NCBI GenBank assembly: GCA_000004985.1
Contig: GG738868.1
Reading direction: 5' to 3' (one strand)
Length of the DNA: 64,000 nt
Source of the DNA: Naegleria gruberi
Lineage: Eukaryota
The translations under genes and the position numbers were made by a program. Below the pieces are notes generated by a model that worked only from the letters and a program-made list of their open reading frames with translations, did no database searches and was not told the DNA's origin. Below are positions 5,631 to 62,313 of this stretch, piece by piece (position 1 is the first letter of the stretch; each line of letters starts with the position of its first letter).

Positions 5631-7208
5631 TTACCACTTCTTTTGATTTTGTTGATGTGTGGTATTATTGGTTGGATTACCTGATGGATAAGCTGGATAA
5701 ACAATTTGGTTTGGATGTCCAAAAACGTAGCCAGATTGTGGGTATTGGGATTGGTAACCTGGGAGATAAGCTGGGTATGGATTAACCTTAGCTTCGTTTT
5801 GTGGAGATTCTGATTTATGCTTATTGTCCATTTGCATTTGTTGACTTTGTGGATACATGAAGAAGTATGGTTGTTGAACGAATGGATAGTTAGCATCTTG
5901 TTGATGTTGTTCAGCATCTTCAGAACCAGTAGCTTGATTGTACATTCCGAATCCTTCTTGACTATAACCAAAACCTTGATTAAAGTTCTTATTAGTATTA
6001 ACACCTTGAGCACCTTGAGGTTGATAATATTGATAAATGTATGGGTAATATTGAGGATGATATGGATATTGATGATTTGGAATGTATGGAATGCCATAAT
6101 TGTGATGCATCTTTGGATCAGACCAGAATTGACCATTTTGCATTTGTGGGTTAGTTTGAGCGTTTGGTTGATTAACAGAAGAAGTAGGTTGAGATTTTGG
6201 AAGTGGTTGAGATCCTAAATCCAAAGTACCGAATTGAATATTTTGAGTAGTATTGTATGGAATACCTGTTGGCATTTGGAGTTGTGGTTGTTCTTCTTGT
6301 TGAGTTGGTCTTTGTTCGAATGAAGTTTGGTAGTTTGATTGAGCAGATTGTTGTGGTTGTTGAATTGGTTGAGATGGTTGTTGGATTTCAACTTGTTCTT
6401 CAACTTGTTGTTCAACTTCTTCATTGGCCAATTCTTCTTCTGGTACTTCTTCTTCGACAACAGATTCTTGGACAATTTGTTGTTGAATTTGAACTGGTTC
6501 TTGGACAGGTTCTTTAACCTCTTCCTTTGGAGCCTTCTTATCACCCTTTTTCTTTCGTTGTTGATTTCGTTCATTCTTAGCTTTTTCCTTTTGATCCTTG
6601 GCTTGTTGTTCCAAAAGTTTCTTTTCTTCATCAATCTTCTTCTTTTCTTCATCTTCCTTTTTTTTGAAAGCAGCAGCAGCTTCGCTGTATGAAAGAACCT
6701 TGGCTTGTTGTGGTTGAGTTTGTTTTGGTTCTTCTACAACTTCGTCTTCTGGAGCAGAAAAATTACGAACTTCAGATGATGTTGTTTTGTCTTGCTTAGA
6801 TGGTTTTTTCTTGTTTGGTTTATCATTTGTAGGAGAGGCTGGTTGTTGTGTGGTTGATGTTGATCTAGGGCCTGATGGTGAGGAACCAGCACGGCTTCCA
6901 CCACGAGAACCACCTCTACCTCCACGACCACCTCTACCACCTCTAGTAGTCTTTTGTGTTCTGATATCCTTTTTCTCTACGGTTGTCCAATCTTCCTTAC
7001 CATCAACCTTCTTTTGTACTACAAGTTGAACATCATAGTTGTTTTCTTCGAGACATCTTTGGATTTCATTTTTTTTCCAATCACCGAACATTTCTTGGAT
7101 TTGTCTTACTTTTTTCTCAACATCCCTTGGAAGGTTATCACCTTCAGAGTTATTGTTGTTGTATTGTCTTTTAGTGTATGTTTGCTTTCCTCCTTTGTTT
7201 TGGGACAT
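5631..7208 (-). CDS. CUE-domain protein with RGG box, KE-rich coiled region and Q/P/Y-rich prion-like C-terminus (yeast Def1-like architecture)
   Basis: Single 525-aa ORF. The N-terminal segment QIQEMFGDWKKNEIQRCLEENNYDVQLVV fits a CUE (MFP...di-Leu) motif. It is followed by RGGRGGRGGRGGSRGGSR and an EK-rich block. The C-terminus is a Q/P/Y/N-rich domain of about 250 aa. Confidence 0.6.
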   Translation of the reverse strand: MSQNKGGKQTYTKRQYNNNNSEGDNLPRDVEKKVRQIQEMFGDWKKNEIQRCLEENNYDVQLVVQKKVDGKEDWTTVEKKDIRTQKTTRGGRGGRGGRGGSRGGSRAGSSPSGPRSTSTTQQPASPTNDKPNKKKPSKQDKTTSSEVRNFSAPEDEVVEEPKQTQPQQAKVLSYSEAAAAFKKKEDEEKKKIDEEKKLLEQQAKDQKEKAKNERNQQRKKKGDKKAPKEEVKEPVQEPVQIQQQIVQESVVEEEVPEEELANEEVEQQVEEQVEIQQPSQPIQQPQQSAQSNYQTSFEQRPTQQEEQPQLQMPTGIPYNTTQNIQFGTLDLGSQPLPKSQPTSSVNQPNAQTNPQMQNGQFWSDPKMHHNYGIPYIPNHQYPYHPQYYPYIYQYYQPQGAQGVNTNKNFNQGFGYSQEGFGMYNQATGSEDAEQHQQDANYPFVQQPYFFMYPQSQQMQMDNKHKSESPQNEAKVNPYPAYLPGYQSQYPQSGYVFGHPNQIVYPAYPSGNPTNNTTHQQNQKKW

Positions 7209-43319: not shown

Positions 43320-44414
43320 ATGCAAAGTATTCTCCAATTACCTCCTGAACCATTGGGAGTGATTTGTTCGTTTATTTGTGATGAACCCGAATTAATTAAA
43401 TCCTTCATGATTACTAATAAGGATTGGTATTATAATTTATATATGGATGAGAATTCTAATATTTGGGCAGAGATTGTAACATACCGAGCAGATAAGAATA
43501 TTTTGGAACAATTTATGAAGGAAAAGCAAGATCGTTCCTATAGAGAATTAGTATTTTCTATTTGGAATGAAATGTCTGGTTATGGAGGGAATTCATTATT
43601 TGTTTTCAAGAATAATGAAAATGGTAATTTAGCTCAACAAGTAGGAATGCAAGTAAAATTTGATGATGAGATGGCAAATAGATTTAAAGGAACTGATGGG
43701 TTTACAGTTGAAATGTGGATTAATTTTAAATTGCATACCTTCTTTCCAGTCATGTGTTGTTTAACTGATAGAGATTGGAATAATGGTTTTGGATTATTTG
43801 AATATACAAACGGAAACAATGAAGAAAATCCAAATACTATTAACATGTTTGTACAAGATTGGTATCAAGATCCAAATTATTTCACTACAGCTCCAATTCC
43901 AGATGTGAATGAATGGAATCATTTTGCTGGAGTTTTCAGTTATGCAGATAATACAGTCAGGATTTATAGAAATGGTCAATTGATAAATTGTAAAACAATT
44001 ACTGATCATAATATTCAAATAAGTTCAGATATGAATTTGGTGATTGGTTTTTCTGATTATTCAGGTGATATTTCTTATCATGTTATTGGTGAATTTAATG
44101 ACATTAGAGTTTGGAATGTGGCTCGATCTGATACTGAAATTTCAGAATATTACAATAAGAGAATTACAAAACTAAACTTTTTGAATGAGAAAGAGTATGA
44201 AGGATTAGTTTTCAATTTTTATCCATCAGTGGAGGATACTAAGGAAAATATCAAGAACAAATCACCAAATCCAGAATACAGAATTGAGAAGTATGATATT
44301 GTAGATAATGCAGCAACAGATATTGCAACCTCTGAAGTTGATAAAATGGGGAAAAGTCTACTTTCTAAAATGTGGTCGAGTGCCTATTCCACAATAAAGA
44401 AGGTTTTCAAATAA
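43320..44414 (+). CDS. F-box-like plus concanavalin A-like lectin (LamG-type) domain protein
   Basis: The N-terminus LPPEPLGVICSFICDEPELIKSFMITNKDWYYNL is F-box-like. The C-terminal jelly-roll signature ...LVIGFSDYSGDISYHVIGEFNDIRVWNVARSDTEISEYYN is typical of LamG/ConA-like domains. Confidence 0.55.
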   Translation: MQSILQLPPEPLGVICSFICDEPELIKSFMITNKDWYYNLYMDENSNIWAEIVTYRADKNILEQFMKEKQDRSYRELVFSIWNEMSGYGGNSLFVFKNNENGNLAQQVGMQVKFDDEMANRFKGTDGFTVEMWINFKLHTFFPVMCCLTDRDWNNGFGLFEYTNGNNEENPNTINMFVQDWYQDPNYFTTAPIPDVNEWNHFAGVFSYADNTVRIYRNGQLINCKTITDHNIQISSDMNLVIGFSDYSGDISYHVIGEFNDIRVWNVARSDTEISEYYNKRITKLNFLNEKEYEGLVFNFYPSVEDTKENIKNKSPNPEYRIEKYDIVDNAATDIATSEVDKMGKSLLSKMWSSAYSTIKKVFK

Positions 44415-44508
44415 AATCTTCTTAAATTGAATTAATTTTATATATGGTTTATTTGAATAGTTTAAGCATTTCACTAGATCAATAAAACAATAAGATCATT
44501 CTTCATTA

Positions 44509-46532
44509 TTATTGTACTAAACACTTCTTTGAATGAGATTTACCATAATTTTCATCTCTACTGATTGCAATTGCTTTCAATATAATTTCACTCAAATCAT
44601 CAAAACCATATCTTTTTTTTGAGCTAGTTTCAATATAAGTTATACAACCTATCTTTTTAGCCATCAACTCTCCTTCTTCAAATGTGATTGGATTTGTATC
44701 ATATTTGAGAAGAAAAATTGGATCAGTGCGATAGTCAACCTTATTATTCACCAATATAATAGGTGTATCAGGACAGTGATGTCTAATTTCTGGAATCCAT
44801 TTGAGTGCAACATTGAAAAATGAATTTTCTGCTACGCAACTAAAGCTCAGTAAGAATAGAGATGTATCTGGATAATTCTATTAATCAATTAGTCAACTGA
44901 TAAGATAGGTTATTACTTACCAATGGACGTAAACTATTGATATTGAAAAATATTGAAATATATAAAACAACCTACCAATCATAATCTAAAATCGATGAGT
45001 AGAAATAAGTATTTTCATAACTACTTACCTTCAGGACCAGCAGTATCCCTTTCAAATGTCAATTATTCATATTGACTCAATAAAACTTACCATAGACCAA
45101 TTAAATAACTCTTTCCCTCAACTCTGACACTCAAATCATAATTATCAAATATTGTTGGAATGAACTCTTCTGGATAGCTACCTGTAGCATATGTAATATA
45201 TAATGATGTTTTACCAACTGATCCATCACCAACCTGAATTATCTTTTCACTTGCAGGAGGTGAATATTTTTCTAACATTTCATTCATTTGAGAGTATTGT
45301 AAAATTTCAGATGATTTTGAATAATGTTTACCATCTAAACGTTGTGTTGCTTTTCTAATTGTCCGTATTCTTTTAGAATTCTTCTGTTCAACTTTTGACA
45401 ATATGGATTGAATTGTTTCAATTAGAATTTGTCTAAAATTTGATGTTTTAAGTAAATTTAATTCAAATAGATTTGCTTGAGAGAAATATTTTGATGCAAT
45501 TTTAAATTCCTTCATCTTTTTTAAATAAAAATCTTTCCAAAATTGATCTTCACTTGTTAATTCACAAATTCTTAATGATTTGGAAACTAAATGTAATTTC
45601 ATTAAATCTTGAATATTAAGAAATAATAGAATTGATCTTAAAATATCATCATTCAGATTCTTGAATAGTTCAATATTAAATGAAAATGTCAAAATGTCAC
45701 AAGTCATTTGAAATCCTCCAAATATAAAATAATTAAATGAAGAATCAATGGGAATTTGAACTAAAGTGTGGAGACATGGTCTAGCTACTTCCTTATCATT
45801 GAAAATATTCGAAAGTGAATGATTTTTTTCAATTTTCCAACCTTCACTAATATTTTCCAAATCAAGACATGTACAATCTGTGAAATCTTGATTTAGATTA
45901 CAACCACCAATACTATATAACTTATTTCCTTCCAAAACCATTGAATGTCCATATCTAGCAAAATTATCATTCAAAATAATCTCAGCTTGACATTTGACAT
46001 TTCCAACATTTTCCAATGAATCAAGTGAAATCTTAATTGTATCCTTAATAATTGAATCATAATTTCTACCACCATGTATATACCACTCTCCTGTTTCATT
46101 ATTTAACACGGATGCATGATAATATCGATGTGAAATTACTTCTTGACTTGAATCAATTTCCACTCTTGTCCATTCCATATTTGTAAAATTAAATTTAAAT
46201 AATTCATTTGATGCAAAATAATTTTTACAATTATATCCACCAAATATAAATAATTGATTTTTAAAAATTACACTTGAATGACCATATAAAGGTGGAATTA
46301 ATCTATCTTTGGAATTTAATTGTTTCCATGAATTATTTGTAAATTCATATATCCAAATATCATTATGAAAACTATTAATAGATTTACCTCCAAATAAAAT
46401 CATTTCATTTGAATTTCTTAAATTGGTAGTATGACAATTTCTTGCACATGGAATTAATTTTTCTATTGAATGATTCGGATCAGTTAATATTGTTAAATTT
46501 CTCCATTTTTTAGTTGTAATATCAAATTTCAA
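44509..46532 (-). CDS. Kelch-repeat + F-box + Rac-family small GTPase fusion protein with CAAX box; catalytic Gln replaced by Pro; GTPase part in several small exons; 5' end unresolved
   Basis: The large exon (46532..45087) carries Kelch motifs (MILFGGKS..., QLFIFGGYN..., WYIHGGRN..., KLYSIGGCN..., YFIFGGFQ), the F-box DDILRSILLFLNIQDLMKLHLVSKSLR and the start of a Rac domain IIQVGDGSVGKTSLYITYATGSYPEEFIPTIFDNYDLSVRVEGKSYLIGLW. Downstream exons read DTAGPE (Q61 to P) and LRPL. The last exon NYPDTSLFLLSFS...HHCPDTPIILVNNKVD... ends with the polybasic CAAX tail KSHSKKCLVQ. Confidence 0.7.
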
Positions 46533-46816: not shown

Positions 46817-49800
46817 TTATTCATTTCCATTTCCATTAATTTGAACATATTGTTGTAAAATAGTATCGATTGGAATGTCAGGATTTCCTTTTCCTTTTTG
46901 AAAAGTTTCTTCATCTTGATAACGTTGATGTAAAATGTGTGCAATCATTCTATTATATTCCTTTTTAAATTCAATTCCAATTAATTTAATATAATAAAAT
47001 AAAATAAATGCTAATAAACAAATTGAATAAATTGACATTTGAATTATAAATGTTGAATAAACTGAATGAATTGAATCAACAAGTAAACAAATTAAACATC
47101 CAGGTATAGTAATTACTATATTAATTATAAAAGTACCAATTAAAGGAATGTATGAATTTGTATAATTATGTGATAAAATAAACATTTGATAACAATTCAT
47201 AAAAACATAAATAATACTACTTGTAAATGATACAATCCAATATTGTTGTATTATTTGATCAATATTTTTAACTATTGTTGAATCTGATGTTAATTTAACT
47301 CCTTCCATTACTATATTTGTAATATCAGTTACTAAATATATACAAATAAATATTAAAGTTATAATTAAAAGTAATAAAATTGATTTAATATTTAAATAAA
47401 TTAATCCTTTGTAATTTAATCTATTTATACATCTTCTACTATATATAGTAATTAATGAATTTCCTAATAAACAAATTTTAATATAAATTAAACTATAACA
47501 AGTAACAATAATAAAAGAAATAAATTCACTTGTAGAATAATTATAATAAATTATAATTGAATTAATTATATAAATTATTAAAGTTGAAAATGAAAATCCA
47601 AATATAGTTAAATAATTTCCAATTAATCTTTTAAAAATAAATTTATCAAATTTAAAAAAATCATTATTATAAAAACAAAAACATGAAATTCCCTTTTTAG
47701 TAAATAACATTAATAAAATTGAAATTATTAATGGAAATAAATATGAAATTCCATAAATTAATGAAATATAATAATAAATTTTATCATTAAATGCATGAAT
47801 AATTTCTGATTTTGGAATTAATAAAAATACTATATATAGTAATACACCAAATATAATTGTAAAATAAACATGAACAAAATTATAAAAAGCAATAAAAATT
47901 GAAATAAATAATAAAATAAAATTATAAAATAAAATATTACTAATATTAAAATAAAATATAAATTCCCAAACTGTTGATCTATTTATAGCATAAAATATTC
48001 CAAAACTGGCAGCATATTGTAAAATACTTGATAAAAATGTTAATATGAATGAAATTAAAACAATTTTACCAATAAAAGAATTTGATAAAAATAATTTTGA
48101 ATTTTGAATATCAAATAATTCACGATGATAATAATATTTAAATATATTCATTCTATAATTAGTAATATCCATAAATAGATAAATAATAATTGGATACATG
48201 AAAATTAATTCTAAAATTAAATTAATTGTAAATAAAATAATAAACATTAAAGAACTATCATTATCAATAATATTAAAAGTATTATTAATTAAATATTTTG
48301 TACTAATAAATGTCATGATAAAAATAGATGAAATTAAAATAAATAATTTTGTAATTGAACTTCCATGTGAATATTCTTTAAATGAAGGATGAACAATTAA
48401 TGATGACATTGGTTCTGATTTTCTCATTAACCAATCATTTTCATCAAATTCATTAGAATCTTCTGAATCTGAATTATCATTTTCAATATTTAATAGTGAT
48501 GTACTACTATTACTATTCCACCTCCACCAACACCACCTCCACCTCCACCAACCACCAAATATACTATTAGATGATGTTAAATGTTGTGATCTAATATTTG
48601 AATGATTTGAATGATGATTATTTGGATGAATGGATTGTTCTTGTGAAATGGATTGATAATATTCATTAAATGCCTTTTCCTTAATTGAACTTTGAAAGTT
48701 TTGTTTCACTACCAACATTGAAATATCACTCATTAGAGATTGATTATTACTATTATTATTATTATTGGAATGTAAATCTTGAAATGCCTTATCCAATGGA
48801 TTTGTCTTTTCAATTGGTGCTAAAAGTTGAATTTTTTTACGTTGAGTTGAATTGATAGAATTTGATCGTTGTTCAAAATCTTGATTATTATTAACATTTG
48901 AATTTTCATTCTTTTCAGTTGACATGATAAAGAATGAAGTAATATCATCAATAACCAATGATTGTTCTGAGGTTTCTTCTTTTTTAGATGAGGAGAATGA
49001 ATTCATTTTTCTTGTTGTACTTGTTGAGAGAGCACTGAATGAACTTGATTTACCTGGTAATTGATTAATTGATTTCTTTGTTGATTTTACAACAACTTTA
49101 ACTTCATCTTCATCATCATCATCATCGTAATGATCATAAACTTGTCTCTGACCTAAATATTGAGATTCCTCTCTGGCCAATTGTTCATCCTTTAAAACAT
49201 TCATATCAACTTCATCATCATTATTTTCATTATTATTATTACTATTATATTTCATTAGACTTGATAATTGTTGTGCAATGTCCATTCCATTTCTAACAGA
49301 TTGACGATTATTCATTACAATGGCATTGGAATTATAATTTTTAGAACTTGCATCTAAAATATCTGGAATTGAAGACATGGTACTCATATTCTCATCAGTT
49401 AAACGATCATCTTCATCATCCTGATCATCTCCACCATCTTGATCATCATCCTGATCATCATCATCATCATCGTCACTTGATGCTTCAGTCATTTCATTAC
49501 TCGTTGGGAGAACATCAAGAAATTGAATGGATTGATTCACTTCTTTAAATTTATCAATCCACTTGAACATTTCATCTGAATTATTAGTCTTTAAATATAA
49601 TACTCTCTTTTTTGTTACAATTTTAAATATATTAAATTCATTCTTAAATTCATTAAAACATTCAACAATAATTGATTTATCAATATTTAGTGATCCCTTC
49701 TTTTTCTTCTTTTTTTCATCGGTATAATAGGTTAATTCAGATTCATCATGAAATACAAAATATCTACGTTTCCAACTCTTTACAATTTTACCTTGTTTTT

Positions 49801-50173
49801 GTAAAAATCCTTCAATATGTACATCTTTCTCATTATTATTGTTAGAATTAGAAGAATTATTAGTACGAATATTACGACTATTACGATTATTATTGTTATT
49901 ATTTGATGATGAATTATTGTTATTATTACGAAGCCTAAAACTTGAAAATATTGATTGTTGATTGGATGAGTTTCCAATATTATTATTAGATGATGATGGT
50001 GTAGTATTAGATGATTGATTAAAAGAAGATTCATCCTGTCCACCCAATGTAACCACTGGTAAATTATTGATGGTATTTCTCTGATTGTTGGGATTCATTG
50101 GAGTGGATAAATTATTGAAATCATCATTGGTACGAAATGATGAGGTTGTTGAATGAAAGTCATCATTATCCAT
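46817..50173 (-). CDS. PH-domain protein with C-terminal polytopic (about 12 TM) membrane domain, long N/S/D-rich disordered linker
   Basis: Single 1118-aa ORF. The N-terminal PH domain is IEGFLQKQGKIVKSWKRRYFVFHDESELTYYTDEKKKKKKGSLNIDKSIIVECF...MFKWIDKFKEVNQ. The C-terminal 550 aa hold many hydrophobic helices with no family I recognise. There are poly-N, poly-D and a (CCA)n-encoded W/R tract. Codon usage is extremely AT-rich. Confidence 0.65.
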   Translation of the reverse strand: MDNDDFHSTTSSFRTNDDFNNLSTPMNPNNQRNTINNLPVVTLGGQDESSFNQSSNTTPSSSNNNIGNSSNQQSIFSSFRLRNNNNNSSSNNNNNNRNSRNIRTNNSSNSNNNNEKDVHIEGFLQKQGKIVKSWKRRYFVFHDESELTYYTDEKKKKKKGSLNIDKSIIVECFNEFKNEFNIFKIVTKKRVLYLKTNNSDEMFKWIDKFKEVNQSIQFLDVLPTSNEMTEASSDDDDDDDQDDDQDGGDDQDDEDDRLTDENMSTMSSIPDILDASSKNYNSNAIVMNNRQSVRNGMDIAQQLSSLMKYNSNNNNENNDDEVDMNVLKDEQLAREESQYLGQRQVYDHYDDDDDEDEVKVVVKSTKKSINQLPGKSSSFSALSTSTTRKMNSFSSSKKEETSEQSLVIDDITSFFIMSTEKNENSNVNNNQDFEQRSNSINSTQRKKIQLLAPIEKTNPLDKAFQDLHSNNNNNSNNQSLMSDISMLVVKQNFQSSIKEKAFNEYYQSISQEQSIHPNNHHSNHSNIRSQHLTSSNSIFGGWWRWRWCWWRWNSNSSTSLLNIENDNSDSEDSNEFDENDWLMRKSEPMSSLIVHPSFKEYSHGSSITKLFILISSIFIMTFISTKYLINNTFNIIDNDSSLMFIILFTINLILELIFMYPIIIYLFMDITNYRMNIFKYYYHRELFDIQNSKLFLSNSFIGKIVLISFILTFLSSILQYAASFGIFYAINRSTVWEFIFYFNISNILFYNFILLFISIFIAFYNFVHVYFTIIFGVLLYIVFLLIPKSEIIHAFNDKIYYYISLIYGISYLFPLIISILLMLFTKKGISCFCFYNNDFFKFDKFIFKRLIGNYLTIFGFSFSTLIIYIINSIIIYYNYSTSEFISFIIVTCYSLIYIKICLLGNSLITIYSRRCINRLNYKGLIYLNIKSILLLLIITLIFICIYLVTDITNIVMEGVKLTSDSTIVKNIDQIIQQYWIVSFTSSIIYVFMNCYQMFILSHNYTNSYIPLIGTFIINIVITIPGCLICLLVDSIHSVYSTFIIQMSIYSICLLAFILFYYIKLIGIEFKKEYNRMIAHILHQRYQDEETFQKGKGNPDIPIDTILQQYVQINGNGNE
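48520..48560 (-). repeat. (CCA/CCT)n-type simple repeat inside PH-TM CDS encoding a W/R-rich tract
   Basis: Plus strand ccacctccaccaacaccacctccacctccaccaaccaccaa. The minus-strand frame reads GGWWRWRWCWWRW. Confidence 0.7.
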
Positions 50174-50382: not shown

Positions 50383-50829
50383 ATGTCTGAAGAAATAACC
50401 TCAACTACCACCACAACTAACGTTCAAGAATCATCAAGTTCCGAATCAACCTCATCGGAAGTTATTACCATCACAGTTAGATTAATTAAAAGTTTCCATT
50501 ATAGAAATATTAAATTATTAATCTTGAAGGATATTAAAGTAAATGAATTAACTGGAAATGATTTATTGAAATTAGTTTTGGAAAAGATTGAAAAGGAATC
50601 AGGTTTGCTTCCACATCGTGGACGTAAATATGATACATTTAAATTATATCATCATGCCTTTTCGTTTAAAGCAAATAATTTAGTTGTTAATTTACAAGAT
50701 GATGATAAATTAATCTTTAAAATGGATAAAACTTTGAAGGAAAATAATGTTGATAATGAAGCTGAAATTAGTTGTTTCATTATGGATGAATATTTGGAAT
50801 TCAAGAAAAATCCAGAATTGAAATGGTAA
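50383..50829 (+). CDS. UPF0538 family protein (C2orf76-like)
   Basis: ITITVRLIKSFHYRNIKLLILKD...RKYDTFKLYHHAF...LQDDDKLIFKMDKTLKENNV...EISCFIMDEYLEFKKNPELKW parallels my recollection of human C2orf76 (ITVRLIRSFEHRN...YDTLKI...DDDRLLLKEDSTLK...FFCEEDYKNYKANP). Confidence 0.5.
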   Translation: MSEEITSTTTTTNVQESSSSESTSSEVITITVRLIKSFHYRNIKLLILKDIKVNELTGNDLLKLVLEKIEKESGLLPHRGRKYDTFKLYHHAFSFKANNLVVNLQDDDKLIFKMDKTLKENNVDNEAEISCFIMDEYLEFKKNPELKW

Positions 50830-51799: not shown

Positions 51800-52357
51800 T
51801 TATTGTAAAACAATTTCCATTAAATAACAATCTTTACATTCATTTTCAGGTAATCTATCATTAATATAAAAGTTTTCAAGCTTTTTAATATTCTTAAAAC
51901 CAATCTTTTCATAAAATTGAATTGCACTTTCATTTGTGCATTGAACATGAAGATGACATCTATCAATTGAAAACTTTTTACAAATTTCAAAAACTTTGGA
52001 AATTAATTCACGACCAATTCCTAACTTTCTATATTTTGGTAATACACCTAATAACATTAAATAAATTGATGGATTTCCTTCACAAGAATCAACTCTACAT
52101 GAAAAACTTCCGACTGGTATATCATTGAAAATTGCAAATTGATTAAATTCTGGTCCTTTTTGAAGTATTTGTTCATATACAGATTCTCTGTATTTAATTG
52201 GATAAATATAATTATTTAAAATCTTTAATTGTTCAATATTCTTATCAATAATTCCCAACAAGCGTAACTTTTGATTCTCTCCAAGCTTTTTTTGACTGCT
52301 ATGTGATGAGAAGAATGAACGATGGTCAATTAAATTGGCTTGATTAGTAGTAGTCAT
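51800..52357 (-). CDS. N-alpha-acetyltransferase 50 (Naa50/NatE catalytic subunit, GNAT fold)
   Basis: GVLPKYRKLGIGRELISKVFEICKK...CHLHVQCTNESAIQFYEKIGFKNIKKLENFYINDRLPENECKDCYLME matches the Naa50 acetyl-CoA binding and C-terminal regions (RRLGIG...LHVQISNESAIDFYRKFGF...NYYKRIEP). Confidence 0.72.
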   Translation of the reverse strand: MTTTNQANLIDHRSFFSSHSSQKKLGENQKLRLLGIIDKNIEQLKILNNYIYPIKYRESVYEQILQKGPEFNQFAIFNDIPVGSFSCRVDSCEGNPSIYLMLLGVLPKYRKLGIGRELISKVFEICKKFSIDRCHLHVQCTNESAIQFYEKIGFKNIKKLENFYINDRLPENECKDCYLMEIVLQ

Positions 52358-52633: not shown

Positions 52634-54180
52634 ATGTCTTCGTCTGATAACAACAACACTCCACCACCATCAGCATCATCATCTTCTAGTGGTAGTCAAC
52701 AAGAAGAAAAGCAACGTATCACTCAAGAAGCTATTCAAAATGTTGCCAAATATCTTCCAAATGAAGATAAAAAGAGAGCCGAACAAGAAATCACCAAGGA
52801 TAGAAAATTCTGGAACAATCAACCTGTACCAAAGATTCGTAAGTTTAGCATATTTAAGACTCTAATAGTAGTATTCATTGAATTCCAACCATTGATTATT
52901 ATTTATACAATTTGATATTATAATACAAAATCATAATCATCATACAATAATTCTTCATCATCATCTTTATAAACACTTTATTATTAATACATATATATGA
53001 AATTACAAAATGATGGAAAATAGATGAAAAGGTTGATCAATTAGGAGAAATTGAAACTAGAACTGTGGATCAAGTACAAAAAACACCATTTGCCTTACCA
53101 AAAGGTTATGAATGGTACAATTTGGATGTTGATAATGATGAAGATATGGGTAAATTGTATGCATTATTAGAAGGTAATTACGTAGAAGATGATGATGCCA
53201 TGTTCCGTTTTGCTTACACAAAGGAATTCTTGAAATGGGCATTGGCACCACCTGGATATAGAAAGGATTGGCATTGTGTTGTTAGAGTTGAATCATCAAA
53301 AACATTTGTTGCATTTATTGCTGCTATTCCAATGTTAATTGGATTACGTCACCAACAAGCTGAAAGTGAAGAAAAATTCGATAAGAATGTTAAAATGGTT
53401 GAAATTAACTTTTTATGTGTTCATAAGAAATTGAGAGATAAGAGATTGGCACCACTTTTAATTGGTGAAATTACTAGACGTGTTAATTTAACAAATGTTT
53501 GGCAAGCTATTTATACTGCTGGTGTTGTGATTCCACGTCCAATTAGCAAAGCTAGATATTATCATCGTAGTTTAAATCCTGAAAAATTAATTGATATCAA
53601 ATTTAGTTCAATTCCAAGCTTTGCTCGTAGTTTTTCAAATCCAATGGAAGTTACAAAGAAATATTATAGATTGAATCCAAAAGAAAAGATTCCAAATATT
53701 CGTCCTTTAAAGTCGAAAGATTGTGCTCAAGTTGCTGCATTGTTAAATGATTACTTGTCAAGTTTCAAAGTTGCACCAATTTTCACAAAGGAAGAAGTTG
53801 CTCACTGGTTTATCGGTAGAGATGGTGTTATTTATTCATTTGTTATTACAGGTGATAGTGATGATAAGATTATTGATTTTATTTCATTCTATTCACTTCC
53901 AAGTACAATTATTGGAAATCCAAAACATCAAGTTTTGAGAGCTGCTTATTTATTCTTCTACACTTGCAAAAATACCAAAGTTGAAGAATTAATGAAGACT
54001 GCTTTAATTGAAGCTCAAACAAGAGATTTTGACGTTTTCAATTGTGTTAATATTTTGGATAATAAGGAATTTTTGGACAAGCTTAAATTTGGTACAGGTG
54101 ATGGTTATTTGTACTATTATTTATTCAATTACAAATTCCCAGATTTGGAACCAGAACAAGTTGGTTTAACAATGCTTTAA
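52634..54180 (+). CDS. nmt: Glycylpeptide N-tetradecanoyltransferase (N-myristoyltransferase); 2 exons (52634..52838, 53024..54180)
   Basis: Exon 1 ends ...RKFWNNQPVPKI with a GTAAGT donor in phase 1. Exon 2 (acceptor AAAATAG) continues HEKVDQLGEIETRTVDQVQKTPFALPKGYEWYNLD...NYVEDDDAMFRFAYTKEFLKWALAPPGY...EINFLCVHKKLRDKRLAPLLIGEITRRVNL...FGTGDGYLYYYLFNYKF...GLTML. There is near-colinear identity to NMT1, including the catalytic C-terminal carboxylate. Confidence 0.92.
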
Positions 54181-54257: not shown

Positions 54258-55821
54258 TCAATTGTGTTTGCTCGAATATTTAACTTTTCTTACTACTATA
54301 TCAATTTGAGAATTTAGGTATTTTACAATTTCTGGAGTATGTTTGAATGCTGATTTGAATTGTTCATTCTTTCTCAATATCTCAAGGTTATCACCTAAAA
54401 AACTACTAATATCAAAATTTGCTAATTGTTCAGATTCTTCTGCAAAATATTTTAATAAATTTTGTAAAATTTCAATATTTTCATTGTCCAGTTTTTCTAT
54501 TTCGTTTAAATATTTTACAATAAAGAAAGCAATAAATTCAAATAAATTATTCTTGTTATATATTTTAAAAAACATTAACTTGTGTCTTTTAAATTTATCT
54601 AAACGTTTTAAATAAACAACTAAATGTTTAAATATAGTAGTAATTGTTTCATTTAATTTTTTTAAATAATTATTATAGTTATTTTTCACAGTTAAATATT
54701 TAATAAATTTTTCCACTTTCTTATTAATTTTAATATTTTCCCTTTCTTTCATTAAACCTCTATATGTGGATGACCATTTAATTTCTTTCTTTTTTTTACA
54801 TTTTTTATCATCATCAACACACATTAATAATTTTTCAAAATCTGTAGTATTATCTTTAAATTTATAATTTTCAAAGATATTAGGTTTTTTCTTCTTCTCT
54901 TGTTGAATAATGATATATAATAGATGATTCTGATGAATAATGATAAGACAAATTATTATTATCATCTTGATAATCATCATCATTATCATCATCATAGTCA
55001 TCATTATAATTATTAGCAATTAATTGATGTTTATATACAAAATCATTATTATTATTATAAAAATATTTTTCATCATAATAGGTTAAAGGTTCAGAATACT
55101 TAAAATGAATTGAATTTTTCTCTCTATTATTTTTTTCAAATCCTTGATAATTATTTCTAAATTGAAACTTTGTTTCTTGTAAATTATTTATAATACATTT
55201 TAATATTCTTTTTTTAATATTTTTATTTAATATATCAGGTAATATATTTTTAATTCTAATAATTTCCTTTTTTAAATAATATCTTAATTGACTTGAACTA
55301 TTGTTAGAAAAAGAATGTTCACTTGGTATTGTATTTTCATAATATTTTTTAAACCCTTTTCTTCTATTTACTTTAATAGTTAAATTATGACTTTCCAATT
55401 TTGTAATTATTTTTTCTAAATTTATTTTTAAATAATAAAAACATAATTTTTTATATAAAATTTGATGTTTATCATAAATTTCTAAATATATATTTAATTT
55501 ATTTGATACTTTATATAAATTATTACAAATATCATGTAATGTTAAATATTTAAATACATGTCTAGTCCATATTTCAATTGGTAATAAATCAATTATATTA
55601 TTATTATTATTATTATTTGAATTGTTGTTATTAATAGTTTTATTATTATTAAATAATATTATTGTATTGTTATGATGATGTTTTAAATGATCAATAGAAG
55701 AGGAAGGTGAATATAATTCATTATCATCATTTAAAGTATTTAATGATGATGATGAATATAAATTATTATTATCATTATCTACTATTATTAAAGGAGAAGA
55801 TGGTGATGATGATGATAACAT
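54258..55821 (-). CDS. F-box-like hypothetical protein, extremely N/K/Y-rich; 2 ORF segments (55821..54880, 55019..54258) needing an intron or frameshift
   Basis: The upstream segment contains the F-box-like IDLLPIEIWTRHVFKYLTLHDICNNLYKVSNKL. The two segments overlap by 140 nt in different frames. AT content is about 85%. Confidence 0.4.
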
Positions 55822-56373
55822 TTTTTTTATTATTATTCCAATTGATGATGATTGTTGTGCGAAGATAATTTTTAATAGTAGCTGATGAACTTTGAAAGTT
55901 TCATTTCGGTATTTAAATTCCGATACAATTTCGGTGATTCCAATTGTTAATTATGTTATTCAATCTACTATTATCTACAATATTTGAATTTAAGAGTGTA
56001 AAGTATTCTGTAGTGCAATGTTGAATTCTAATAATTCATACATTTTAATTTTGTATATTTAAAAAGTTATCTTTCACATTTCAATAGTCTAACATATTTT
56101 CATCAATATAATAGTAGTAGTATTGTATTCAAACCTATAATTATAAATATTAAAGTAATAAGAAACCTACTTCTCTCTAGAACCTTATTAAACAATTTTT
56201 AAACCTCAATAAAAAAAAATACCTCAATTATTATTCATATAACTACCAAACTAAACCCTTAAACTTACTATTTATTCAACTACTACTACTACTCTGAAAC
56301 TCTAACTTTCTATAAACATAATACTATAACTATTACAATTATTAACATATTACAATTATATTAAACTATTACA

Positions 56374-57471
56374 ATGAAAGAATTTAAAAGTAATTTTATT
56401 CAACAAATTTATGATGAAGTTGAATGGGTTATTCAAGATGAAAGAAAAGAAAATTTAAATAATATATTACCAAATATATATTTAAAATCATCATTTCATA
56501 TTATTAATTCTTTATTTAAATTATTATTTTCTATAAAAAGAAGTGAAATTTTAAATATTATTGATTATCATGTTAAAGATGATGTATTAAATACATTAAA
56601 TGATATTATTAATGAATATAATAGTGAAGAATGTAATATTGAATTTATTGAATTAATTGACTTGACTAAAAATGTAATGAATTTATTTAAAAAATATATT
56701 TTACAATTAAATTTTAAAATTGAATTAAATTATATTGAAAATTATATTAATAATAATAACGATATAAATCCATTTATATTAAAATATTTATTATTAATTT
56801 TAAGTTATTTACAAAATACTTCTAAAGTATTAAAATATATTAAACAAATATTTAATATTGAATATTTACAATCTATTGATTTAATTTATATTTGTTTAAT
56901 ATTATTTAATTATGGTAAAATTAATAATAATTTAAAATATTTAAAAGATTCATTTTTATTAATTTTATATTCACGTGTAACATTACCTATATTTAGTGAA
57001 AATATTTTAATTAAAATTGGTAATTATATTTTAAATAATTATAATATTGACGAAGAATTTGAATTTATAATTAAATGTTCATTTACATTTAGTAATAAAT
57101 TATTATTTAAAGATGCAAATTCTTTTAATTTCCTTTTAGAGAAATCAAAAGAATTATATAAAAATATTTTTGATTATAAAAATGAAAATGAAAAATTAAT
57201 TTGTCTAATTTCATGTTTACATAATTTTAATTTAGTTATTGATTTAATTTCTAAAAATAAAATAATATTAAATATTGAATTGTATGATAAATTAAATTTA
57301 TTATTTACAAATATATTATATTTAGTAAAATTAAATTTAGAAATTGAAAATGATTTTATTAATAAAATTTATAATCCACTATTAAATAGATTAATAGAAG
57401 AGAATAGAATGGTAATGAATGTATTAAATTATAGAAATCATCAACAAGCACTTGTTGAGAATCTTTTGTAA
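56374..57471 (+). CDS. Hypothetical I/L/N-rich protein (365 aa)
   Basis: Long uninterrupted ORF in very AT-rich DNA. No motif I recognise. Confidence 0.35.
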   Translation: MKEFKSNFIQQIYDEVEWVIQDERKENLNNILPNIYLKSSFHIINSLFKLLFSIKRSEILNIIDYHVKDDVLNTLNDIINEYNSEECNIEFIELIDLTKNVMNLFKKYILQLNFKIELNYIENYINNNNDINPFILKYLLLILSYLQNTSKVLKYIKQIFNIEYLQSIDLIYICLILFNYGKINNNLKYLKDSFLLILYSRVTLPIFSENILIKIGNYILNNYNIDEEFEFIIKCSFTFSNKLLFKDANSFNFLLEKSKELYKNIFDYKNENEKLICLISCLHNFNLVIDLISKNKIILNIELYDKLNLLFTNILYLVKLNLEIENDFINKIYNPLLNRLIEENRMVMNVLNYRNHQQALVENLL

Positions 57472-58165: not shown

Positions 58166-59980
58166 ATGAGCGTACATAGTTATCATAGTAATAATAGTCA
58201 GCCTCATCAACAACAACAACAAAATGAAAATATAAATACAGACTATTATAATATAAATACATCATCTTGTAATAATAGTATTTCAAATAATAATAATAAT
58301 AATAAATATTTTGATGAAGTAAATTATGATTCAACACTTGGAGCCTATTCAAATGAAGATTTATATAAAGATTGCGAGAGAATGATACAACAACAATATG
58401 GATTAAAACCATCATCACCATTTAGAGATTTAAAATTCCATTTAATACAAGAAATATTTTCATCTATTACTAAATATATTCATCAACAAGTTGAAAATTT
58501 CAAATCAGTTAGTATAAATAATATTGGAAGATTTTCATTTATTACAAGTCATTTAAATACAGGTAATAATGGAATTATTGAAAGTAAAAAATTAGTATTT
58601 GTAATGAGTGAATCTTTTATTAGAGATTTTAATTTAAAAATTTGTAAAAGTTATAGAAAATTTGTAGATAATTCAATTCCAACTATGGAAGTTAATTATT
58701 TTTTAATAGCACAACAATGTTGTACAAGAAAGGAAATTGTAATGTTAGCTATTAGAATGTTTAGAAATAGATTAGGTGAAATTATGTCAACTGGTAAAAA
58801 AGTTTTAATTGAATTTACTTCAATTGGTCAATTAAAATGTGATAAGAGAATTGTTTCTGATTTTGATTTTATTGATAAATTTAGAAAACCTTTAAATTCA
58901 AAACAACAGAACAAACATGAAACAATGAAAAAGAAATTTAATAGAATCATGTCAAGAGAAGATTTAAAATTATTAAACAAGATGAGAATTGAACATCAGC
59001 AACAAGAATATACTGCACAACCACCTCAAACAAGTCGATCCATGATTTATTCAACGAGGAGTAGTGTGAGTGGTGGTTCAATTCGTAATCCATTCACAAT
59101 TATTCACGATATGAAAACAACAAATAATAGACCATTAAGCTCATCTGCATCTTCAATACGATCCTATCATTCTACTAGTAGAATATCAAATCAACAACTC
59201 CAGCAACAACAACAACAATTTGCAAGAGGTAATGGAGTGAATGCAGTTAGAAATTTACAAAATCATCAACCAAATACTTTGAATTATGAACCACATCCAC
59301 CTTCAATACCAAGACCACCACCAACATCTTCATTATCTTCACAAAGATTAACACGTGAAACATTGGATACATTTAATAGGCAACAACCACCACAACAACA
59401 GAATCAAACAGTACTTCCATCAGATTTTGTAGAATCACAATTTTCACCATCAACAAATTATGGACCCTATGATAATGGATTTAGACAACCCAATCCAACA
59501 GCAGCTAAGAATGTAATGAATATGGCAGTTAAAAGATTTGAAAAAGAATTGGAATCATCTAGAAGAAATCAACAAAAAGAATTAGATGATTTTTATAGAC
59601 AATTAATTCATAATGTATGTGCTAGTGAAGAATTGAGAAGAAAACAGAGAGAAGAAGCCTCCAATATACAAAATACATTACTCAATCAAATGCAACATAC
59701 AGGTGCAAAGAGACAAATAGAAGATCATGAATATTGTAATTTCTTTTTAGATGAAAGAGATGAAAATTTAAATGCTAATAAGAATGCTTTATTAATGGGT
59801 TTTAAAAAATCAAAGAATAATGAAAGAAATGCAGTTTCAAAAAGTTTACCTTCAATACCTTCATTACAAGCAATGAAACCAATTCAAAAAATAATGCTTA
59901 ATGAAAATAATCCAATTGAGAAGGGTTTAAGAATACCAGATAAGCATGAATTATTTGATTATTATAATGAATTTAATTAA
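58166..59980 (+). CDS. Hypothetical Q/N/S-rich protein (604 aa)
   Basis: Long ORF with poly-Q and poly-N runs. The N-terminal globular part of about 250 aa has no family I recognise. Confidence 0.4.
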   Translation: MSVHSYHSNNSQPHQQQQQNENINTDYYNINTSSCNNSISNNNNNNKYFDEVNYDSTLGAYSNEDLYKDCERMIQQQYGLKPSSPFRDLKFHLIQEIFSSITKYIHQQVENFKSVSINNIGRFSFITSHLNTGNNGIIESKKLVFVMSESFIRDFNLKICKSYRKFVDNSIPTMEVNYFLIAQQCCTRKEIVMLAIRMFRNRLGEIMSTGKKVLIEFTSIGQLKCDKRIVSDFDFIDKFRKPLNSKQQNKHETMKKKFNRIMSREDLKLLNKMRIEHQQQEYTAQPPQTSRSMIYSTRSSVSGGSIRNPFTIIHDMKTTNNRPLSSSASSIRSYHSTSRISNQQLQQQQQQFARGNGVNAVRNLQNHQPNTLNYEPHPPSIPRPPPTSSLSSQRLTRETLDTFNRQQPPQQQNQTVLPSDFVESQFSPSTNYGPYDNGFRQPNPTAAKNVMNMAVKRFEKELESSRRNQQKELDDFYRQLIHNVCASEELRRKQREEASNIQNTLLNQMQHTGAKRQIEDHEYCNFFLDERDENLNANKNALLMGFKKSKNNERNAVSKSLPSIPSLQAMKPIQKIMLNENNPIEKGLRIPDKHELFDYYNEFN

Positions 59981-62313
59981 ATTTGAGTAAATTGTTGATA
60001 ATATTGATAATATTGTTGATAGTATTGTTTGTATTGATCCAATGTCCATCGTTGATCTATTGTTGATGATGAATTAGATAATGATGCATTAGTGTCAAGT
60101 TTAGTTTTCTTTGCATCAATTGTGGAGGTGGTACCATCAAGTCTTCTCTTCTTTTGATTGTCATGATTCTCTTCTTCCAATTTTGTAATTGCACTTTTAA
60201 TTTCTTGAATCTTTTCCAATGAATTAAAATATTGACTAGTATAATGTTTTAATAATTTTAATATTTCAATCTTGAATGCAACTTTATCAAATGATGATTC
60301 ATTATTATTACTATTGGTATTATTAGTAGTAGTATTGGTATTATTAGGTAATAAACCCCACATACTCATATAATGTTTAACAGTTTTATCAACCATTGTA
60401 TTATTAGAATTCTGATCTTCATCAACCATCATTTCATTATTTTGATGAGAATCAAAATTAGATAAATCTAATTGTAAAATAAAATTAATTGCCTTTTCAA
60501 AATAGGAAATATCATTTGGATGATCAATTAAATATTGACTTTCAAATTCTAAATAAGCTTGATATGGTTTTTTTAAATTTGAAAATTGTAATAAACATTG
60601 ATTAAATAAATTTCTAGTTTTTTCCAAATCCTTTTTTACTTTCCAATTAAATTTAATAAATTCCAATAAAAAATAACATTTTGAATTTTTACCTTTAATT
60701 AAATTTAAATTTTGTTCAAATAAAAATTCAACTTTTTGATAATTTAATTTTCTTTGATAATAATTAATACAATTTAAAATTGATTCTAAATGACCAATTG
60801 ATTTAACATTAATTAAATTATTATATAATTCATCAATTTTATCATTTTGATTTTCTAATTGTAAATATTCAATATATTGTAATGTAACATAATATTTATC
60901 TTTTAAAACACTATAATTAATTAAACGATCATATAATTCATTTAAATTTAAATTTTCAGATTTTAAAAAATTAAAATATAAATTCCAAAATTCAATATAA
61001 TAAGAACAATAAACAATAAATCTTTCAAATGTTTGAATTAAATGTTCTTGATCACACCACTTGTTTTGTTTTTGATAATATTCATTCTTTTCATTTTCAA
61101 TATATTTTCTAAAATGTTCCAATTCATAATCTTGAAATGGTTGTGGATGAAAATATGGTCTACGTATTAAATCTTCAAATGAACGAATTCTTTCCAATTC
61201 TTTTTTAGTTGGCATGTATAATTGTTCTCTCCAATAACTTGTTAAATCATTCAATTTTTGTGATTGTTGATATNNNNNNNNNNNNNNNNNNNNNNNNNNN
61301 NNNNNNNNNNNNNNNNNNNNNNNNNNNNNNNNNNNNNNNNNNNNNNNNNNNNNNNNNNNNNNNNNNNNNNNNNNNNNNNNNNNNNNNNNNNNNNNNNNNN
61401 NNNNNNNNNNNNNNNNNNNNNNNNNNNNNNNNNNNNNNNNNNNNNNNNNNNNNNNNNNNNNNNNNNNNNNNNNNNNNNNNNNNNNNNNNNNNNNNNNNNN
61501 NNNNNNNNNNNNNNNNNNNNNNNNNNNNNNNNNNNNNNNNNNNNNNNNNNNNNNNNNNNNNNNNNNNNNNNNNNNNNNNNNNNNNNNNNNNNNNNNNNNN
61601 NNNNNNNNNNNNNNNNNNNNNNNNNNNNNNNNNNNNNNNNNNNNNNNNNNNNNNNNNNNNNNNNNNNNNNNNNNNNNNNNNNNNNNNNNNNNNNNNNNNN
61701 NNNNNNNNNNNNNNNNNNNNNNNNNNNNNNNNNNNNNNNNNNNNNNNNNNNNNNNNNNNNNNNNNNNNNNNNNNNNNNNNNNNNNNNNNNNNNNNNNNNN
61801 NNNNNNNNNNNNNNNNNNNNNNNNNNNNNNNNNNNNNNNNNNNNNNNNNNNNNNNNNNNNNNNNNNNNNNNNNNNNNNNNNNNNNNNNNNNNNNNNNNNN
61901 NNNNNNNNNNNNNNNNNNNNNNNNNNNNNNNNNNNNNNNNNNNNNNNNNNNNNNNNNNNNNNNNNNNNNNNNNNNNNNNNNNNNNNNNNNNNNNNNNNNN
62001 NNNNNNNNNNNNNNNNNNNNNNNNNNNNNNNNNNNNNNNNNNNNNNNNNNNNNNNNNNNNNNNNNNNNNNNNNNNNNNNNNNNNNNNNNNNNNNNNNNNN
62101 NNNNNNNNNNNNNNNNNNNNNNNNNNNNNNNNNNNNNNNNNNNNNNNNNNNNNNNNNNNNNNNNNNNNNNNNNNNNNNNNNNNNNNNNNNNNNNNNNNNN
62201 NNNNNNNNNNNNNNNNNNNNNNNNNNNNNNNNNNNNNNNNNNNNNNNNNNNNNNNNNNNNNNNNNNNNNNNNNNNNNNNNNNNNNNNNNNNNGTATTCAT
62301 CAACATGACACAT
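59977..62313 (-). CDS. HAT/TPR-repeat protein (Prp39/CstF77-like half-a-TPR repeats), interrupted by assembly gap
   Basis: W/Y/F-spaced helical repeats occur in the readable part (YWREQLYMPTKKELERIRSFEDLIRRPYF..., FIVYCSYYIEFWNLYFNFLKSE..., KPYQAYLEFESQYLID...). The 5' part of the gene lies in or beyond the N-run. Confidence 0.4.
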   Translation of the reverse strand: MCHVDEYXXXXXXXXXXXXXXXXXXXXXXXXXXXXXXXXXXXXXXXXXXXXXXXXXXXXXXXXXXXXXXXXXXXXXXXXXXXXXXXXXXXXXXXXXXXXXXXXXXXXXXXXXXXXXXXXXXXXXXXXXXXXXXXXXXXXXXXXXXXXXXXXXXXXXXXXXXXXXXXXXXXXXXXXXXXXXXXXXXXXXXXXXXXXXXXXXXXXXXXXXXXXXXXXXXXXXXXXXXXXXXXXXXXXXXXXXXXXXXXXXXXXXXXXXXXXXXXXXXXXXXXXXXXXXXXXXXXXXXXXXXXXXXXXXXXXXXXXXXXXXXXXXXXXXXXXXXXXXXXXXXXXXXXXXXXXXXXXXXXXYQQSQKLNDLTSYWREQLYMPTKKELERIRSFEDLIRRPYFHPQPFQDYELEHFRKYIENEKNEYYQKQNKWCDQEHLIQTFERFIVYCSYYIEFWNLYFNFLKSENLNLNELYDRLINYSVLKDKYYVTLQYIEYLQLENQNDKIDELYNNLINVKSIGHLESILNCINYYQRKLNYQKVEFLFEQNLNLIKGKNSKCYFLLEFIKFNWKVKKDLEKTRNLFNQCLLQFSNLKKPYQAYLEFESQYLIDHPNDISYFEKAINFILQLDLSNFDSHQNNEMMVDEDQNSNNTMVDKTVKHYMSMWGLLPNNTNTTTNNTNSNNNESSFDKVAFKIEILKLLKHYTSQYFNSLEKIQEIKSAITKLEEENHDNQKKRRLDGTTSTIDAKKTKLDTNASLSNSSSTIDQRWTLDQYKQYYQQYYQYYQQFTQI
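61274..62292. other. Assembly gap (1019 N)
   Basis: Continuous run of n characters. Confidence 1.

Follow-up and report, generated by a model that had tools for sequence, protein, structure and literature searches.

The stretch of Naegleria gruberi DNA analysed here (64,000 nucleotides, hereafter the window) carries on its minus strand an uninterrupted open reading frame that starts with ATG and encodes 1118 aa. To judge from its sequence, the locus is probably one intronless gene for an integral membrane protein in which a low-complexity N-terminus, a PH domain, an acidic linker, about 12 transmembrane (TM) helices and a basic tail follow one another, the PH domain serving as a 3-phosphoinositide-targeting element, a reading to which we give a probability of roughly 0.6. 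The coordinates proposed in the initial annotation, which was made from the letters alone, are borne out (Table 1); its looking to Amoebozoa for orthologues rested on a mistaken assumption, the source, N. gruberi, being an amoeboflagellate of the Discoba (Heterolobosea).

Table 1. Features of the locus, with positions counted from the first nucleotide of the window
Feature	Position	Strand	Basis or remark
Complete single-exon CDS (1118 aa + stop), Naegleria gruberi NAEGRDRAFT_67728	46817..50173	-	both annotated introns read through
N-terminal N/S-rich low-complexity extension (aa 1-117)	49823..50173	-	alignment; missing in Willaertia orthologue
PH domain (aa 118-211), basic motif K126-x-G-x3-K132-x-W-K135-R-R137-Y-F, C-terminal-helix Trp205	49541..49822	-	Pfam PF00169
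Acidic low-complexity linker (aa 216-606)	48356..49528	-	391 aa, net charge -37
Conserved linker island 1 (aa 322-339, VDMNVLKDEQLAREESQY)	49157..49210	-	Willaertia alignment
Conserved linker island 2 (aa 360-369, VVVKSTKKSI)	49067..49096	-	Willaertia alignment
Conserved linker island 3 (aa 406-421, LVIDDITSFFIMSTEK)	48911..48958	-	Willaertia alignment
Conserved linker island 4 (aa 449-467, QLLAPIEKTNPLDKAFQDL)	48773..48829	-	Willaertia alignment
W/R tract GGWWRWRWCWWRW (aa 540-552)	48518-48556	-	imperfect GGTGGA-type repeat; segment missing from Willaertia
Polytopic membrane domain (aa 607-1066), ~12 TM helices, loops <=31 aa, predicted N-in/C-in	46976..48355	-	no family match
Basic cytosolic tail (aa 1067-1118), conserved Y1073, M1076, A1078, H1079	46820..46975	-	Willaertia alignment, topology
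'Intron 1' of XP_002677267.1	47332..48360	-	1029 nt, GTTCAATT...ATATTTAG, 13.4% GC; judged coding; conserved in Willaertia
'Intron 2' of XP_002677267.1	46961..47272	-	312 nt, GTTAAAAA...TTAAAAAG, 17.6% GC; judged coding

The Willaertia orthologue and the membrane domain

An exhaustive phmmer search of 1.84 billion proteins returned a sole relative, which comes from the sister genus Willaertia: the hypothetical W. magna protein KAL9645922.1 (ABK040_001031; E=5e-6, 33% identity, query residues 32-526), which word-index homologue searches, swamped by low-complexity words or short of candidates, had missed. The Willaertia gene is an uninterrupted, intronless ORF of 2544 nt whose 847-aa product is collinear with the Naegleria protein, the PH domain, a linker with the same four islands, about 12 TM helices and the tail coming in the same order; it does without the N-terminal extension (114 aa), the W/R tract and some 85 aa of linker that are present in Naegleria. 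The union of a PH and a roughly 12-TM domain in one protein, as first proposed, therefore recurs in an independent genome, and nothing points to a separate gene for the PH exon, the alternative that the initial annotation had itself named. The two TM domains are 29-33% identical, and their alignment scores 453, where shuffles of matched composition give 170 +/- 14.5 (z=19.4). A downstream Kelch/F-box/Ras ORF was considered as a further part of the gene and rejected because the alignment with the Willaertia protein runs on to the very end of the tail. Within +/-5 kb, the surroundings of the Willaertia gene showed no synteny with the window; relatives from N. fowleri or N. lovaniensis were absent from the exhaustive phmmer and word-index searches, two scans of metagenomes for patterns derived from the PH and the TM domain yielded none, and a literature search on the accessions found no paper. 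By these searches, the family is one so far seen in Naegleria and Willaertia only, the latter contributing its one orthologue.

Kyte-Doolittle hydropathy, together with the helices of two low-confidence AlphaFold models, gives about 12 TM helices in the membrane domain. Lysine and arginine number 13 inside (and 6 more in the tail) versus 5 outside in Naegleria, and 12 (and 4) versus 2 in Willaertia; both ends of the domain are predicted to be cytosolic. The initial annotation had been able to place this domain in no transporter or channel family, a judgement that the profile searches share: nothing was found at E<=10 in Pfam (both orthologues), NCBIfam or the PDB sequences (two-sequence profile), and the Pfam and PDB searches gave no anoctamin/TMEM16 match. 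AlphaFold reached a pLDDT of 44.7 for the TM domain alone and of 38.7 with the two-sequence alignment, values too poor to use, and Foldseek returned 0 matches to the PDB when queried with TM-domain models of pLDDT <45. What the analysis supports is the structure of the gene, the order of its domains, the conservation, the predicted topology and the absence of recognised relatives.

It is possible, if rather unlikely, that the membrane domain belongs, in a strongly diverged form, to a known family of transporters, channels or scramblases (e.g. MFS-like, TMEM16-like or GT-C-like) and that it is under cis control of the PH domain, exerted through phosphoinositides of the same membrane, with no tethering involved. 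Some 12 helices with short loops would suit such a protein, as would the conservation, within predicted helices, of the polar residues E655 (TM2), K899 (TM8) and Q1045 (TM12) and of several Asn and Pro; yet a 6+6 or 4+4+4 internal repeat was sought in vain, both by Smith-Waterman comparison of half with half (z -0.2 and 0.5) and by hhalign on halves and thirds (probability <=0.4%). The empty profile searches likewise speak against a known family, although homology can escape HMMER at extreme composition, and at 22% Ile and a GC of 13% distant kinship with transporters or scramblases of a known family may be invisible. In a cis-regulator, moreover, sensor and pore would be unusually far apart with 305-391 aa of linker between them.

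The PH domain, the linker and the W/R tract

The N-terminal PH domain is canonical, as had been claimed from its sequence: it matches Pfam PF00169 at E=1.9e-17 and 64.1 bits (gathering cut-off 25.1) over profile positions 1-102 of 105, the PH domain of the Willaertia orthologue scores 63.5 bits against the same profile, and the two are 53% identical. The invariant PH tryptophan is present as W205 (FKWID), which aligns with its counterparts in TAPP1 and DAPP1 and is unchanged in Willaertia. The best solved relatives are the PH domain of myosin-X, the C-terminal PH domain of TAPP1 (1eaz) and DAPP1 (1fao), with E-values from 1.5e-13 to 3e-8; what they have in common with the Naegleria domain is KQG..K.WK(R/T)R(Y/W)F and the tryptophan of the C-terminal helix. 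The run K126-Q-G128...K132-S-W-K135-R-R137-Y-F matches TAPP1 KQGAVMKNWKRRYF and DAPP1 KQGGLVKTWKTRWF column for column, and the basic motif KQG...K.WKRRYF is retained in Willaertia.

PH domains of the 3-phosphoinositide subclass (TAPP1/DAPP1/GRP1 type) bear in beta1-beta2 the signature K-x-G/S-x(5-10)-K/R-x-R-aromatic-hydrophobic. For most PH domains, phosphoinositide binding is weak or absent. The basic beta1-beta2 signature of the subclass is found in the Naegleria domain, which by this resemblance would be of the 3-phosphoinositide-binding type, the type it most resembles. Lipid specificity is not readable from the sequence, because a lysine ('KQGK') stands where TAPP1 has 'KQGA' and DAPP1 'KQGG'. 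TAPP1, DAPP1 and myosin-X are soluble adaptors or motors, unlike the polytopic Naegleria protein. A class I PI3K has been reported in N. gruberi (PMC3823935).

Between the PH and membrane domains the initial annotation had described about 400 aa of N/S/D-rich disorder. The length and the composition stand (62% of the residues are N, S, D, E, Q, T or K), and the Willaertia linker is similar, with 305 aa and a net charge of -21, the share of these seven residues lying at 62-64% across both; a featureless linker it is not, given the four conserved islands listed in Table 1. The sequence DITSFFI is not claimed here as an FFAT-like motif, being a weak match to the FFAT consensus EFFDAxE.

The W/R tract, which contains 7 of the 12 Trp of the whole protein, is real in the reference sequence, as first noted, but its ascription to a (CCA)n microsatellite needs amending, since the underlying repeat (48517-48557) is not a pure (CCA)n but an imperfect TCCACC hexamer, or a 21-mer present 1.9 times, and is of GGTGGA type on the coding strand. 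We read the tract as a young, species-specific insertion that stems from a Gly-type repeat read out of frame and that lies outside the conserved mechanism; its absence from Willaertia marks the segment as weakly constrained. Quite unlikely, in our estimation, is that the tract came about by error or through a recent double frameshift and that the real or ancestral protein has a poly-Gly run in its place: the +1 frame of this DNA would indeed read GGGGGGVGGGG, similar repeats elsewhere in the window sit in open frames that read Gly/RGG, or Pro on the opposite strand, and weak constraint would permit such a change, but the Gly frame is closed to either side of the repeat, the Trp frame alone joins the conserved flanks, and a poly-Gly origin would call for a pair of compensating indels placed precisely where the repeat begins and ends. 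The deposited protein has an identical W/R tract, though it derives from the same assembly. The Trp/Arg-rich peptide that results from the out-of-frame Gly repeat is a small curiosity, an example of repeats giving rise to odd sequence where a linker is under weak constraint.

The annotated introns

The public model of this gene (XP_002677267.1 / D2VFS6_NAEGR) has 671 aa, 1029 and 312 nt having been removed as introns. It is 100% identical to the 1118-aa ORF over the retained parts and lacks aa 605-947 and 968-1071, so that 11 of the roughly 12 TM helices are missing because the DNA that encodes them was called intronic. We judge both annotated introns to be coding sequence and the 671-aa model to be a prediction artefact. 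Introns are free from constraint on frame, phase and peptide, whereas both of these segments are multiples of three in length, stop-free and 3-periodic, and the peptides they encode are conserved in Willaertia; an excess of introns of 3n length has been described as a sign of exon sequence miscalled as intron (Roy & Penny 2007, PMC1950532). Across the 467 codons of the membrane part, with its 13-18% GC, there is not one in-frame stop, as compared with 38-81 in the other five frames; the analytic probability of such a stop-free run is about 1e-19, and 2000 shuffles averaged 42 stops and never had fewer than 20. In the TM region the GC content by codon position is strongly 3-periodic, with a GC3 of 0.01-0.07 versus a GC2 of 0.18-0.29. 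Both segments have GT...AG boundaries; their donor sites are GTTCAA and GTTAAA, whereas three putative introns of the neighbouring gene (identified by eye, the first two about 45 nt long) all start with GTAAGT.

That the public model is correct, the two segments being genuine spliceosomal introns (or exitrons) and a soluble PH protein with no membrane domain being the product, is extremely improbable, for although the GT...AG ends, the exact recovery of XP_002677267.1 upon excision of both segments and a GC content like that of non-coding DNA would agree with it, the 3n lengths, the open frame, the codon periodicity, the dissimilar donors and the conservation of the helices encoded there in one continuous Willaertia ORF all speak against it. 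Because the segments are 3n, stop-free, 3-periodic and conserved collinearly in the intronless Willaertia gene, we take the fusion to be real and the public model to be wrong. D2VFS6, which is entered as a soluble PH protein of 671 aa, is corrected accordingly to the product of a gene that would encode a 12-TM protein. Membrane-coding DNA of 13% GC with a GC3 near zero can be mistaken for intron by a gene predictor; further membrane proteins of N. gruberi may have been affected likewise in its v1 annotation, and with them the membrane-proteome inventories derived from it.

Resemblance to Ist2 and a possible mechanism

Yeast Ist2, a TMEM16-like tether and scramblase between the ER and the plasma membrane, has a 590-aa TM domain, a disordered region of about 360 aa to which Osh6 binds, and a polybasic motif for PI(4,5)P2 (PMC12617493). 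The Naegleria protein is likewise built of a polytopic domain (about 500-590 aa across the two systems), a disordered region of about 360-390 aa with short partner-binding sites (putative in Naegleria), and a far end that in Ist2 binds phosphoinositides (PMC12617493; PMC8282664) and here is a PH domain. The order of these parts is reversed with respect to Ist2, the lipid binder of Naegleria being N-terminal and a folded PH domain instead of a polybasic helix, and, unlike the TMEM16-like Ist2, the Naegleria membrane domain has no Anoctamin/TMEM16 sequence match. As a matter of architecture alone, the TM domain, the 305-391-aa linker and the PH end are those of an Ist2-type tether; many Naegleria proteins have long linkers of low complexity, so that the length of this one may have no bearing on tethering.

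By this analogy the protein is most likely a phosphoinositide-targeted polytopic protein, an architectural mirror image of Ist2. The membrane domain would sit in one membrane and the PH domain, set apart from it by the full length of the linker, would capture lipids of the PI(3,4)P2/PIP3 type in the same or an apposed membrane; such capture would target, tether or regulate the membrane domain, and the conserved linker islands may be partner-binding sites. The conserved intramembrane Glu and Lys suggest that the membrane domain might also act in its own right on a polar solute or a lipid head group. What we infer is the lipid specificity, the tethering or regulatory role and any transport activity; the phosphoinositide-regulated transporter or scramblase suggested in the initial annotation is likewise a conjecture, the fold models being of too low confidence. 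A bolder form of the proposal, which we consider unlikely and offer tentatively, would make the C-terminal 460 aa a new heterolobosean-restricted polytopic family with its own lipid- or solute-handling activity and the whole protein a contact-site tether that reads 3-phosphoinositides, a PH version of Ist2 independently invented in Discoba.

A large polytopic domain joined to a PH domain is an uncommon architecture in itself. Should the Ist2-like reading be true, the protein would provide a handle on membrane contact sites and 3-phosphoinositide signalling, which are almost uncharted in Discoba.

Coding sequence annotated as intron in NAEGRDRAFT_67728

The N. gruberi reference annotation of NAEGRDRAFT_67728 loses a 12-TM domain that belongs to a family common to Naegleria and Willaertia, which is the new result of this analysis. 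The sole close database match is a 671-aa N. gruberi 'predicted protein' (XP_002677267.1 = EFC44523.1 = D2VFS6_NAEGR = NAEGRDRAFT_67728), which is reproduced exactly when 1029 nt and 312 nt are deleted from the ORF (Table). The public model therefore assigns nearly all of the membrane domain to two introns; what it keeps of the membrane half is a stretch of 19 residues directly following TM9, plus the tail.

That both annotated introns are coding sequence follows from five lines of evidence. The frame contains 0 stops over the 467 codons of the annotated-intron/membrane part, against 38-81 in the other five frames, an outcome whose probability at the local base composition is ~1e-19 (the lowest count in 2000 shuffles was 20 stops); codon-periodic GC is strong there (GC3 0.01-0.07, GC2 0.18-0.29); both intron lengths are multiples of three, a surplus of such 3n introns being a sign of exon sequence miscalled as intron (Roy & Penny, PMC1950532); the donors, GTTCAA and GTTAAA, deviate from the GTAAGT start of all three putative introns (inferred by eye, the first two ~45 nt long) of the neighbouring Ras-like gene; and the translation is conserved in another genus, Willaertia. 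The error is likely due to base composition, since the membrane-coding DNA is 13-18% GC versus 28% in the rest of the gene. GC3 is 0.10-0.21 in the soluble half before it falls to the range above in the membrane half (46976-48355), and it drops likewise in the Willaertia orthologue, from 0.09-0.12 to 0.00-0.02 (6200-7400 of L001, the Willaertia magna locus sequence).

Features of the gene and of the window (nt positions unless marked aa)
Feature	Position	Strand	Remarks
Intact ORF	46817-50173	-	1118 codons, ATG start
PH domain	aa 118-211	-	Pfam PF00169, E=1.9e-17, 64.1 bits vs cut-off 25.1
Linker, PH to membrane domain		-	391 aa; 62% N/S/D/E/Q/T/K; net charge -37
Linker island 1			VDxNxLKDxxLxxEExxY; Naegleria/Willaertia alignment
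Linker island 2			VxVKSxKK; same alignment
Linker island 3			DITSFFI; same alignment
Linker island 4			PIEKxNPLxxAFxD; same alignment
W/R tract GGWWRWRWCWWRW	48518-48556	-	within linker
Membrane domain	aa 607-1066	-	~12 TM helices; hydropathy and helix boundaries from two AlphaFold runs
Annotated intron, 1029 nt	47332-48360	-
Annotated intron, 312 nt	46961-47272	-
RGG-repeat reading RGGRGGRGGRGGSRGGSRAG	6910-6938	-	GGTGGA/GGTAGA-type repeat in open frame
Laminin_G_3/pentaxin-like lectin-fold protein	43320-44414	+
Kelch/F-box/GTPase gene	44300-46532	-	directly downstream; Kelch E=3e-50
DUF2340 protein	50383-50829	+	ordinary housekeeping neighbour
GNAT acetyltransferase	51800-52357	-	ordinary housekeeping neighbour
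N-myristoyltransferase	53065-54180	+	ordinary housekeeping neighbour
Very AT-rich stretch	54258-57471		19% GC; three ORFs of 253-365 aa
365-aa ORF	56374-57471	+	no Pfam match (the one ORF of the three scanned)
CCDC81-type HU-domain protein	58166-59980	+	family linked to cilia and centrosomes
Assembly gap	61274-62292		1019 N, inside long - strand ORF 59977-62313; lowers apparent GC

In the gene directly downstream, a single ORF carries Kelch repeats, an F-box and the beginning of a Ras/Rho-type GTPase domain. This combination is unusual, and the GTPase domain apparently runs on through at least three putative introns (45090, 45028 and 44920), each with a GTAAGT start.

The Willaertia orthologue and predicted topology

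With aa 565-1118 as query, an exhaustive phmmer search of 1.84 billion representative proteins matched only two, the shortened N. gruberi model and KAL9645922.1 of Willaertia magna (847 aa, E=5e-6, 33% identity over query residues 32-526), from the sister genus to Naegleria (PMC11702301); word-index protein searches were uninformative, and two scans of metagenomes added no other relative. In pairwise alignment the two proteins are collinear end to end, with 53% identity in the PH domain, four conserved islands in the linker, 29% identity in the TM domain (every Naegleria position counted) and a short conserved part of the tail. The TM-domain alignment scores 453 versus 170 +/- 14.5 for same-composition shuffles (z=19.4), and the similarity is therefore more than a common richness in Ile/Phe/Leu. 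In the Willaertia assembly the orthologue is an unbroken 2544-nt ORF, which independently confirms that the PH and membrane domains belong to one protein, as the initial annotation had proposed; no synteny between the window and the Willaertia locus was seen within 5 kb.

The sequence-level description in that annotation, namely a canonical PH domain, a membrane domain of about 12 helices and an N/S/D-rich linker of ~400 aa, is confirmed by the values in the Table, apart from repeat type and taxon. Its interpretation is partly supported: architecture and orphan status hold, and the amoebozoan affiliation is wrong, the host being Naegleria gruberi.

With all loops at most 31 aa long, a 12-helix model with a cytosolic N-terminus is in keeping with the positive-inside rule for both proteins (K+R inside versus outside, 13 (+6 in the tail) versus 5 in Naegleria and 12 (+4 in the tail) versus 2 in Willaertia), and this predicted topology fits a cytosolic placement of PH domain, linker and tail alike. 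Conserved polar or helix-breaking residues lie in predicted helices TM2 (E655, P661), TM8 (K899), TM11 (P1024) and TM12 (Q1045).

A proposed phosphoinositide-targeted polytopic protein

The best solved relatives of the PH domain are those of myosin-X, TAPP1 (C-terminal PH, 1eaz) and DAPP1 (1fao), all of which are known to bind PI(3,4)P2 and/or PIP3. TAPP1 and DAPP1 can be aligned with it position by position across the basic signature K126-Q-G...K132-S-W-K135-R-R137-Y-F, which Willaertia keeps as KRGKIIKNWKKRYF. Together with these relatives and the class I PI3K reported for N. gruberi (PMC3823935), this makes 3-phosphoinositide binding plausible.

The two sequences point to a conserved plan of a predicted phosphoinositide-binding module, an acidic flexible spacer of 305-391 aa carrying short islands, and a large polytopic domain. 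Among functional analogues, the closest we can name is yeast Ist2, a tether between ER and plasma membrane that combines a TMEM16-like scramblase domain (590 aa) embedded in the ER, a disordered region (~360 aa) with a short site recruiting Osh6, and a C-terminal polybasic motif binding plasma-membrane PI(4,5)P2 (PMC12617493; PMC8282664). The Naegleria protein has the mirror-image layout, its hook being a folded PH domain; the likeness is one of design only because a sequence test did not place the TM domain in the TMEM16 family. By this analogy we favour a phosphoinositide-targeted polytopic protein, whose PH domain, reaching the same or an apposed membrane, would localise the membrane domain, tether it or regulate it, and whose linker islands would be docking sites for partners.

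A plain cis-regulated transporter or channel, as a diverged member of a known family, is the main rival, and the data are compatible with either reading; distant kinship of the TM domain to such a family, hidden by 22% Ile and extreme AT bias, is possible. No Pfam or NCBIfam model matched the TM domain at E<=10, its two-sequence profile matched no PDB sequence, and the assignment to an unknown family stands; an internal 6+6 or 4+4+4 repeat was not detectable. AlphaFold models of this domain were unusable (pLDDT 44.7 alone, 38.7 with a two-row alignment), and Foldseek gave 0 PDB matches with a low-confidence model (pLDDT <45).

The W/R tract and the possible reach of the annotation error

The W/R tract, a Trp/Arg-rich linker peptide holding 7/12 of the protein's Trp, lies outside the conserved design, the ~50-aa segment around it being absent from the Willaertia protein. 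The repeat is an imperfect TCCACC hexamer instead of the pure (CCA)n microsatellite first described; its coding-strand DNA is GGTGGTTGGTGGAGGTGGAGGTGGTGTTGGTGGAGGTGG, whose +1 frame would read GGGGGGVGGGG. Other repeats of this kind in the window have open frames with a Gly/RGG reading, or Pro from the other strand, the RGG repeat at 6910-6938 illustrating the usual reading of this repeat type; at the W/R tract, the Trp frame alone is open and joins the conserved flanks. We read the tract as a young, weakly constrained insertion, a Gly-type repeat in an out-of-frame reading, with a compensating indel pair or an assembly error as possible origins. Since Trp/Arg-rich peptides prefer membrane interfaces, it may adhere to the bilayer near TM1.

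Gene-model errors and orphan lineage-restricted membrane proteins are both common in protist genomes, and at other loci of the N. gruberi v1 annotation, similarly AT-rich membrane-coding DNA may likewise have been mistaken for intron.
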